A DNA stretch of 64,000 bases from Escherichia coli. Lineage in GTDB: Bacteria > Pseudomonadota > Gammaproteobacteria > Enterobacterales > Enterobacteriaceae. Numbering within the stretch: the first letter of the stretch is position 1; every line of letters starts with the position of its first letter. The stretch is taken from NCBI RefSeq assembly GCF_044647545.1, contig NZ_CP172818.1. One strand, written 5' to 3'. Below the pieces are notes generated by a model, which saw only the letters and a program-made list of their open reading frames with translations, had not been told where the DNA came from and ran no database searches. A program made the position numbers and the translations under genes. Below are positions 9,881 through 10,001 of this stretch, piece by piece.

Positions 9881-10001
9881 AACAACATTATAAATAACCA
9901 CAAAAACTAACAAAATAAAAAAAATACAAAAAACATAAATACAACAAAAAAAAAAAACAAAAAAAAAAAAAAAAAAAAAAAAAAAAAACAAACAAAAAAA
10001 A
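9881..10001. repeat. Anomalous A-rich low-complexity tract with a 30-nt A homopolymer (9959-9988) between convergent yhgN and gntU
   Basis: Seen directly: almost pure A with scattered C/T over about 120 bp; generates a spurious poly-Phe ORF on the minus strand (9827..10057). Confidence 0.9.

Follow-up and report, generated by a model that had tools for sequence, protein, structure and literature searches.

The yhgN-gntU locus and its A-rich tract

The window analysed here, a stretch of 64,000 nucleotides, is a segment of an Escherichia coli chromosome that extends from glgP to yhiJ. It was compared with FDAARGOS_497, the closest complete genome; many relatives are equally close. Over positions 1-9869, 10061-15926, 16598-50213 and 56663-64000 (9.9, 5.9, 33.6 and 7.3 kb), not a single difference was found. 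This backbone is interrupted by three blocks, each at a site whose island content is not the same in K-12 and in the relatives. Block 1 (9870-10062, 193 nt) stands in for a 3.47-kb island of the relatives, block 2 (15934-16277, 344 nt, 83% G+C) replaces 63 nt, and in block 3 (50217-56648) an rhs element takes the place of the relatives' hicAB. Because its backbone is identical to that of ordinary isolates, the window was not taken for a recoded or divergent genome of Escherichia.

The A-rich tract is part of block 1 and lies between the stop codons of the convergent genes yhgN (9276-9869, + strand) and gntU (10063-11403, - strand), both of which are intact and fall inside the segments without differences. 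The stop codon of yhgN is followed by CG, then by 132 nt of inserted A-rich sequence that the native spacer lacks (9872-10003) and then by spacer-like sequence. A base count of positions 9881-10001 (121 nt) gave 98 A, 14 C, 9 T and no G. An uninterrupted run of 30 A occupies 9959-9988, and a second run of 12 A is found at 9946-9957. The G-free stretch covers 131 nt (9872-10002); the runner-up in the window measures 30 nt. By chance, ~1.6e-14 A30 runs would be expected in the window, and the chance of zero G across 131 nt is ~1e-17. In consecutive bins of 20 nt from left to right, the fraction of A is 0.35, 0.65, 0.80, 0.75, 0.95 and 0.95, after which it falls suddenly. The motif AACG at 9868-9871 is repeated at 10000-10003, as a target-site duplication might be. 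The AA of this repeat is part of the A run, however, and CG alone is informative (chance 1/16).

The base count and the gene coordinates thus confirm what a preliminary description of this DNA had reported, namely an A-rich tract with an A30 run between yhgN and gntU. It had further stated that homopolymers of this length are essentially absent from native E. coli chromosomes; in native E. coli loci that total 167 kb, the longest one measures 9 nt. Published values for Escherichia homopolymer tracts of at least 6 nt are a mean of 6.27 nt and a standard deviation of 0.55 nt (PMC8928963), and the A30 run is far longer than these tracts. With the phase-variable tracts of contingency loci in Haemophilus, Neisseria and Campylobacter, the tract shares a long, slippage-prone mononucleotide run. 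Contingency tracts, however, are part of reading frames or promoter spacers and differ from isolate to isolate, whereas the tract in the window lies between two 3' ends, flanked by convergent stop codons, and is found in one record. Neither the tract nor a length variant of it was observed at this site in 5,426 complete genomes, of which the 3,773 with the whole region in one place show native spacing.

Analysis of tandem repeats in the tract returned degenerate A periods and nothing else. The only open reading frame across it encodes a string of phenylalanines, for which no match was found among 15 billion proteins. An Rfam scan of positions 9700-16500 matched the native RyhB alone. This small RNA (RF00057, 83 bits; 15266-15330, - strand) adjoins a run of nine A at 15265-15273 and is ordinary.

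The native spacer, its terminator and the arrangement in other genomes

Positions 10002-10062 hold a degraded copy of the native yhgN/gntU spacer (alignment z = 17.9 compared to shuffled sequences). The copy keeps ~45 of the 56 native positions (~78% identity) and differs by four single-base insertions, several substitutions and a longer A run. Among complete genomes, 3,769 match the native-type spacer directly; in these it is 56 nt long and nearly invariant. Compared to these 3,769 spacers, the copy reaches a best identity of 83.6%, a figure that takes in 13 nt of gntU. The perfect match to the relatives returns at the gntU stop codon. A spacer with ~22% divergence between genes that are 100% identical to those of the relatives is the result of neither natural divergence nor recombination.

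The native spacer is a bidirectional terminator that serves the convergent yhgN and gntU genes: on both strands it forms a hairpin, with the stem CCCGGUAG/CUACCGGG, that is followed by a U run. Its predicted folding energy is -19.6 kcal/mol on the gntU strand and -21.3 kcal/mol on the yhgN strand (z -3.0 and -3.4). The corresponding values of the copy in the window are -8.1 and -9.1 kcal/mol (z +1.1 and -0.3), which is no better than shuffled sequence. The copy is homologous to the native intrinsic terminator and has the same position, but the strong hairpin belongs to the native sequence only.

It had been suggested earlier that the tract, read as poly-U on the minus strand, would shape the 3' end of gntU. 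Our data do not support this role. The U run starts ~60 nt past the gntU stop codon and is not preceded by a stable hairpin, and the U30 itself is located ~75 nt past the stop codon without an adjacent stem. A scan for promoters and terminators revealed nothing at the tract beyond chance, and the hairpin that terminates gntU natively is destroyed. If the tract is not real, the question of its effect on gntU is moot.

The yhgN-gntU region was then compared across 5,426 complete RefSeq genomes of E. coli, a set that lies apart from the source record. The same tract, which according to the preliminary description should be looked for in reference genomes, is absent from all 5,426, and none of them carries a spacer similar to that of the window. 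In 3,773 genomes the whole region is found in one place at native spacing, and 3,769 of these match the native-type spacer directly; a spacing longer by 137 bp does not occur among the 3,773. A search of 20,395 E. coli records (E <= 10) with the left, less repetitive part of the tract gave no match. Representative genomes (100,044 species) and JGI metagenomes contain none of the exact 22- to 28-mers taken from either part of block 1.

The closest relatives carry neither the tract nor the native spacer. In these genomes, a 3.47-kb island that encodes DprA and a RecQ-family helicase lies exactly between the stop codons of yhgN and gntU, and the native spacer is gone (NZ_CP033850.1, positions 9870-13352 of the extracted locus L003). 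This may be a defence-type or a DNA-processing island. A 100% match to the yhgN and gntU alleles that flank the tract was found only in genomes with the DprA/RecQ island, whereas the best island-free complete genome shows 98.9% identity over 1,256 nt of flanks. Since the flank alleles are tied to the island, the short K-12-like spacer of the record is unlikely to be the true arrangement in the cell. The nearest flank sites that distinguish the two groups are 43 and 36 nt away from the spacer, so that a natural swap of the spacer alone would need crossovers within tens of bases on each side.

Runs of 30 A do occur in other sequence records. In representative genomes, at least 120 such stretches were found; among the ~80 listed, most are at the ends of contigs from draft or metagenome-assembled genomes (MAGs) or inside contigs of long-read MAGs, and the latter adjoin junk that consists of G and C only. 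Two Saprospiraceae long-read MAGs contain homopolymer junk of kilobase size (L044, 1412-2200; L023, 1660-2700), and in L044 the sequence 'gggggcgggggcccgcgcgggg' passes directly into poly-A. A Streptomyces draft genome (L080, 5483-5646) carries an internal run of 164 A followed by 21 T inside high-GC, coding-like sequence, which is probably another assembly artefact. With such low-complexity assembly junk, the tract shares a composition of one or two bases, the lack of coding or structural sense and the restriction to a single record. The junk in MAGs, however, is dominated by homopolymers at the kilobase scale, whereas the tract is short, lies inside an otherwise perfect chromosome, shows a smooth gradient and has no very long run except A30.

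The GC block and the other damaged joins

The preliminary description had regarded the tract as the compositional opposite of a GC block at 15967-16276 and had taken this as a hint that both are non-native. The link between the two was upheld, as both are replaced blocks at sites of island insertion in an otherwise identical backbone. The term non-native is correct in that the tract is not E. coli sequence, but it does not apply in the sense of foreign DNA, because the GC block is a degraded read-out of IS1, which points to an artefact of reconstruction. The block (15934-16277, + strand) is collinear with IS1 positions 1-671, depleted of A and T and compressed ~2-fold, and the alignment begins at base 1 of IS1. 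A strict local alignment to IS1 scored 98, compared to 31 +/- 4.7 (maximum 50) for shuffled sequences and at most 50 for control segments. Under permissive settings the score was 292.5, compared to a null of 196.8 +/- 8.2 and to 192.5 for the reverse complement. The IS1 signal thus corresponds to z ~12-14.

In the aligned core, 85-86% of the G and C of IS1 are retained in order, along with 30% of the A and 13% of the T. Substitutions are limited to A to C and T to G. A resemblance to the terminal repeat of IS1 persists over the first 60 nt, and deeper in the block A and T are nearly gone. At 16278 native sequence is back abruptly, and the last 100 nt of IS1 are missing. Blocks 1 and 2 show the same course, from clean sequence through a growing composition bias to an abrupt return. 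To our knowledge, no replication, repair, transposition or other biological process strips A and T in order from a mobile element. The preserved order of an IS1 without its A and T hence points to a failing read-out and not to biology. A reusable test follows from this block: where gaps cost little and junk proves collinear with a known repeat, a failure of read-out is indicated, not foreign DNA.

The final 35 nt of yhhY and the 28 native nucleotides beyond it have given way to the GC block. The block is fused in frame to yhhY, which leads to a protein of 274 amino acids that has lost the C-terminus of YhhY. An IS1 beside yhhY, in the orientation of the GC block, was found in 18 complete genomes, and one of these copies is ~10 nt away and has a 9-bp target duplication. 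These copies suggest an insertion hot spot, and a real IS1 at the 3' end of yhhY in the source strain is plausible. The GC block resembles such an insertion in that it is collinear from base 1 and oriented like the 18 copies. Compared to a natural insertion, however, it has half the length, lacks most of the A and T and shows no visible target duplication. A natural IS1 in the 3' end of yhhY is present in NZ_CM176575.1 (L142, 1725-2492), with the 9-bp duplication cgcattgcg.

Further damage was observed downstream of the GC block and around block 3. The 3' end of ggt (16322-16597, - strand) carries 12 substitutions, all of which are alleles of a paralogous ggt fragment that in other E. coli genomes adjoins a phosphotriesterase-related gene. 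In the last 290 nt of ggt, these alleles are interleaved with 11 sites that retain the ggt allele. Random noise and deamination damage were rejected as causes, since 12 of 12 substitutions are paralog alleles. The protein is changed at four positions (R487W, Y502C, P561S and P571S), and this variant is WP_400165079.1.

Block 3 contains an rhs element, yhhH and an ISAs1/ISEc1 transposase gene (50278-56611). Positions 51482-55320 (3.8 kb) match without a difference the other rhs locus of the relatives, which lies beside yibF, and positions 50278-51481 (1.2 kb) form a mosaic. Indels at 51423 and 51481 break rhsB into open reading frames of 382 and 1002 amino acids. An origin of block 3 as invented sequence was rejected on the grounds that its proteins match natural alleles exactly and that 3.8 kb of it equal the other rhs locus. 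Interleaved ggt alleles and a mosaic rhs element are what arises when repeats are collapsed or reads are cross-mapped; for the interleaving in ggt, the sole natural alternative is patchy gene conversion.

Both junctions of block 3 are compressed blends of two lineage-specific spacer sequences. At the left, a noisy hybrid of 48 nt joins nikR and the rhs element (50214-50261), and a deletion of 1 nt removes the nikR stop codon, so that the NikR protein has 140 amino acids (WP_400165080.1). At the right, the ISAs1-type transposase gene and yhhJ meet in a hybrid that is likewise noisy and compressed (56617-56662). It overlaps a run of ten A at 56616-56625, and three single-base deletions are found before yhhJ (56616-56662). 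On a smaller scale, this A10 junction repeats the A-rich collapse. Conserved functions are lost at the joins, namely the terminator hairpin, the C-terminus of YhhY and the stop codon of nikR.

The fusion of YhhY with the GC block, the stop-lost NikR and the mosaic Ggt were each found on one NCBI contig only (4,499,902 bp), and the window is hence a genuine deposit. Three consecutive RefSeq accessions, WP_400165079.1 to WP_400165081.1, are assigned to Ggt, NikR and the ISEc1 transposase.

Origin of the A-rich tract

Nothing indicates that the tract is a new biological feature. Judged by its sequence context, it is most probably corrupted filler at an assembly or contig join and not DNA of the cell. 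It occurs in one record only and sits, like an artefact, at structural-variant boundaries with clean flanks. Changes that no biology makes are present in the GC block, and the same would hold for the A tract by analogy; we infer on this basis that the two may be of the same origin. The composition gradient, the noisy spacer copy between perfectly matching flanks and the conserved functions lost at the joins also favour filler, as do the paralog alleles in ggt and the usual location of A30 runs in other records. In the process that we envisage, high-quality sequence would have stopped at the site, and the join would have needed bridging during reconstruction of the chromosome. Low-quality reads that closed a gap, or a consensus across a structural difference, may have been the source of the filler. 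A reconstruction that followed the real sequence poorly could then have drifted into a one-base composition, which would be A at block 1. At the companion site, the drift would have been into G and C while the IS1 template was still tracked. Block 1 would finally have re-locked onto real sequence, at first as a noisy rendering of the genuine 56-nt spacer.

Among the known error classes of long reads are read glitches and junk (low-complexity) reads (PMC6966772). Sparse bridges of low-quality long reads, unclipped poor read tails and a K-12-guided consensus each cover part of the observations, and none covers all. A pure K-12 reference-guided consensus accounts for a good deal but falls short of a full explanation: it fits the K-12-like spacer, the position of rhsB and the IS1E-like orientation, but neither the loss of the yhhY end nor the dropout of A and T. 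Against an artefact, it has to be said that the record is otherwise very good and that no single pipeline accounts for every detail, such as the selective loss of A and T. Also, an assembler would have no cause to break at a plain spacer of 56 nt, and something real may therefore be present at the site, be it a repeat, the island or even a true low-complexity tract. Between yhgN and gntU, the cell may carry the plain spacer, a repeat element inserted there or the DprA/RecQ island, which all close relatives have.

It is accordingly possible, if doubtful, that a real insertion at the site, either an IS-like repeat or the DprA/RecQ island, was badly rendered; the A30 itself would still be unreal. 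That junk in this record can replace a real element is seen from the GC block, and the IS1 copies at the yhhY 3' end in 18 complete genomes, the linkage of the flank alleles to the island in every complete genome and the unlikely break at a bare spacer point in the same direction. On the other hand, a compression of at least 6-fold would be required, and the insert is followed by a complete native-type spacer, which is not present in carriers of the island. Moreover, the relatives' DprA/RecQ island, IS1 (both strands) and an AT-rich K-12 segment were compared with the A tract as possible templates, and all scores were within the null, although a stretch of nearly pure A is so poor in information that these scores hardly count against a template. 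By the same gap-tolerant method, the first 76 nt of block 2 gave a significant score with IS1, which served as a positive control. By eye, the tract resembles the left edge of the DprA/RecQ island with G removed. This candidate was rejected, as it reached z 0-0.8 and came 40th among 140 segments.

A generative sequence model or another in-silico infill could also have written the stretch, by exact copying, loss of place, collapse onto one token and re-locking. The progressive collapse of composition, the copying of IS1 with skipping in which G and C alone survive, the junctions that blend two alternative lineage sequences and the halo of mixed alleles after the re-lock in ggt would all agree with such an origin. 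We nevertheless regard it as improbable. The stretch belongs to an NCBI record with three consecutive RefSeq accessions, as expected for an ordinary isolate genome, and the proteins of block 3 are exact natural alleles that are found in independent samples. The ggt alleles come from one specific paralog, which is explained more simply by cross-mapping of reads.

A real A-rich insertion in the chromosome, caused by untemplated synthesis, reverse transcription of polyadenylated RNA or replication slippage, seems very improbable. In its length, A30 falls within the size range of E. coli poly(A) tails. The tract also lies on the sense strand of yhgN directly after its stop codon, a short AACG repeat is found on both sides, and a join at this position would be understandable, as short-read assemblies break at long homopolymers. 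Of the AACG repeat, however, only CG is informative, the tract is known from one record and its non-A part has no source sequence. In addition, the adjoining spacer is ~22% mutated beside perfect neighbouring genes, and the same record holds a block that is demonstrably non-biological. For a poly(A)-tailed retro-insertion with a body copied from elsewhere, no match in E. coli (E <= 10) and no template were found. The average length of Escherichia homopolymers, 6.27 +/- 0.55 nt (PMC8928963), argues against a real run of this size as well. We therefore give very little credence to a natural isolate in which a real 132-bp, G-free insert ending in A30 arose from a copy of polyadenylated RNA or from untemplated synthesis during break repair. 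If it were true, the insert would exceed in length every stable homopolymer known from E. coli chromosomes and would form a hypermutable site between two convergent genes.

An engineered insert such as a barcode, a spacer or a G-less cassette is the least credible origin: convergent intergenic sites are preferred places for engineered insertions and the sequence is wholly G-free, but cloning scars, primer sites and defined ends are absent, the composition drifts and does not appear designed, the adjacent native spacer is randomly damaged and the backbone is that of a clinical-type lineage and not of a laboratory strain.

If the tract is read as filler, the record is a RefSeq-annotated E. coli chromosome in which several corrupted joins yield false proteins. 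These are the YhhY fusion of 274 amino acids, the stop-lost NikR and a Ggt with four false substitutions. The false Ggt and NikR are already contained in protein databases as unique entries (WP_400165079.1 and WP_400165080.1).
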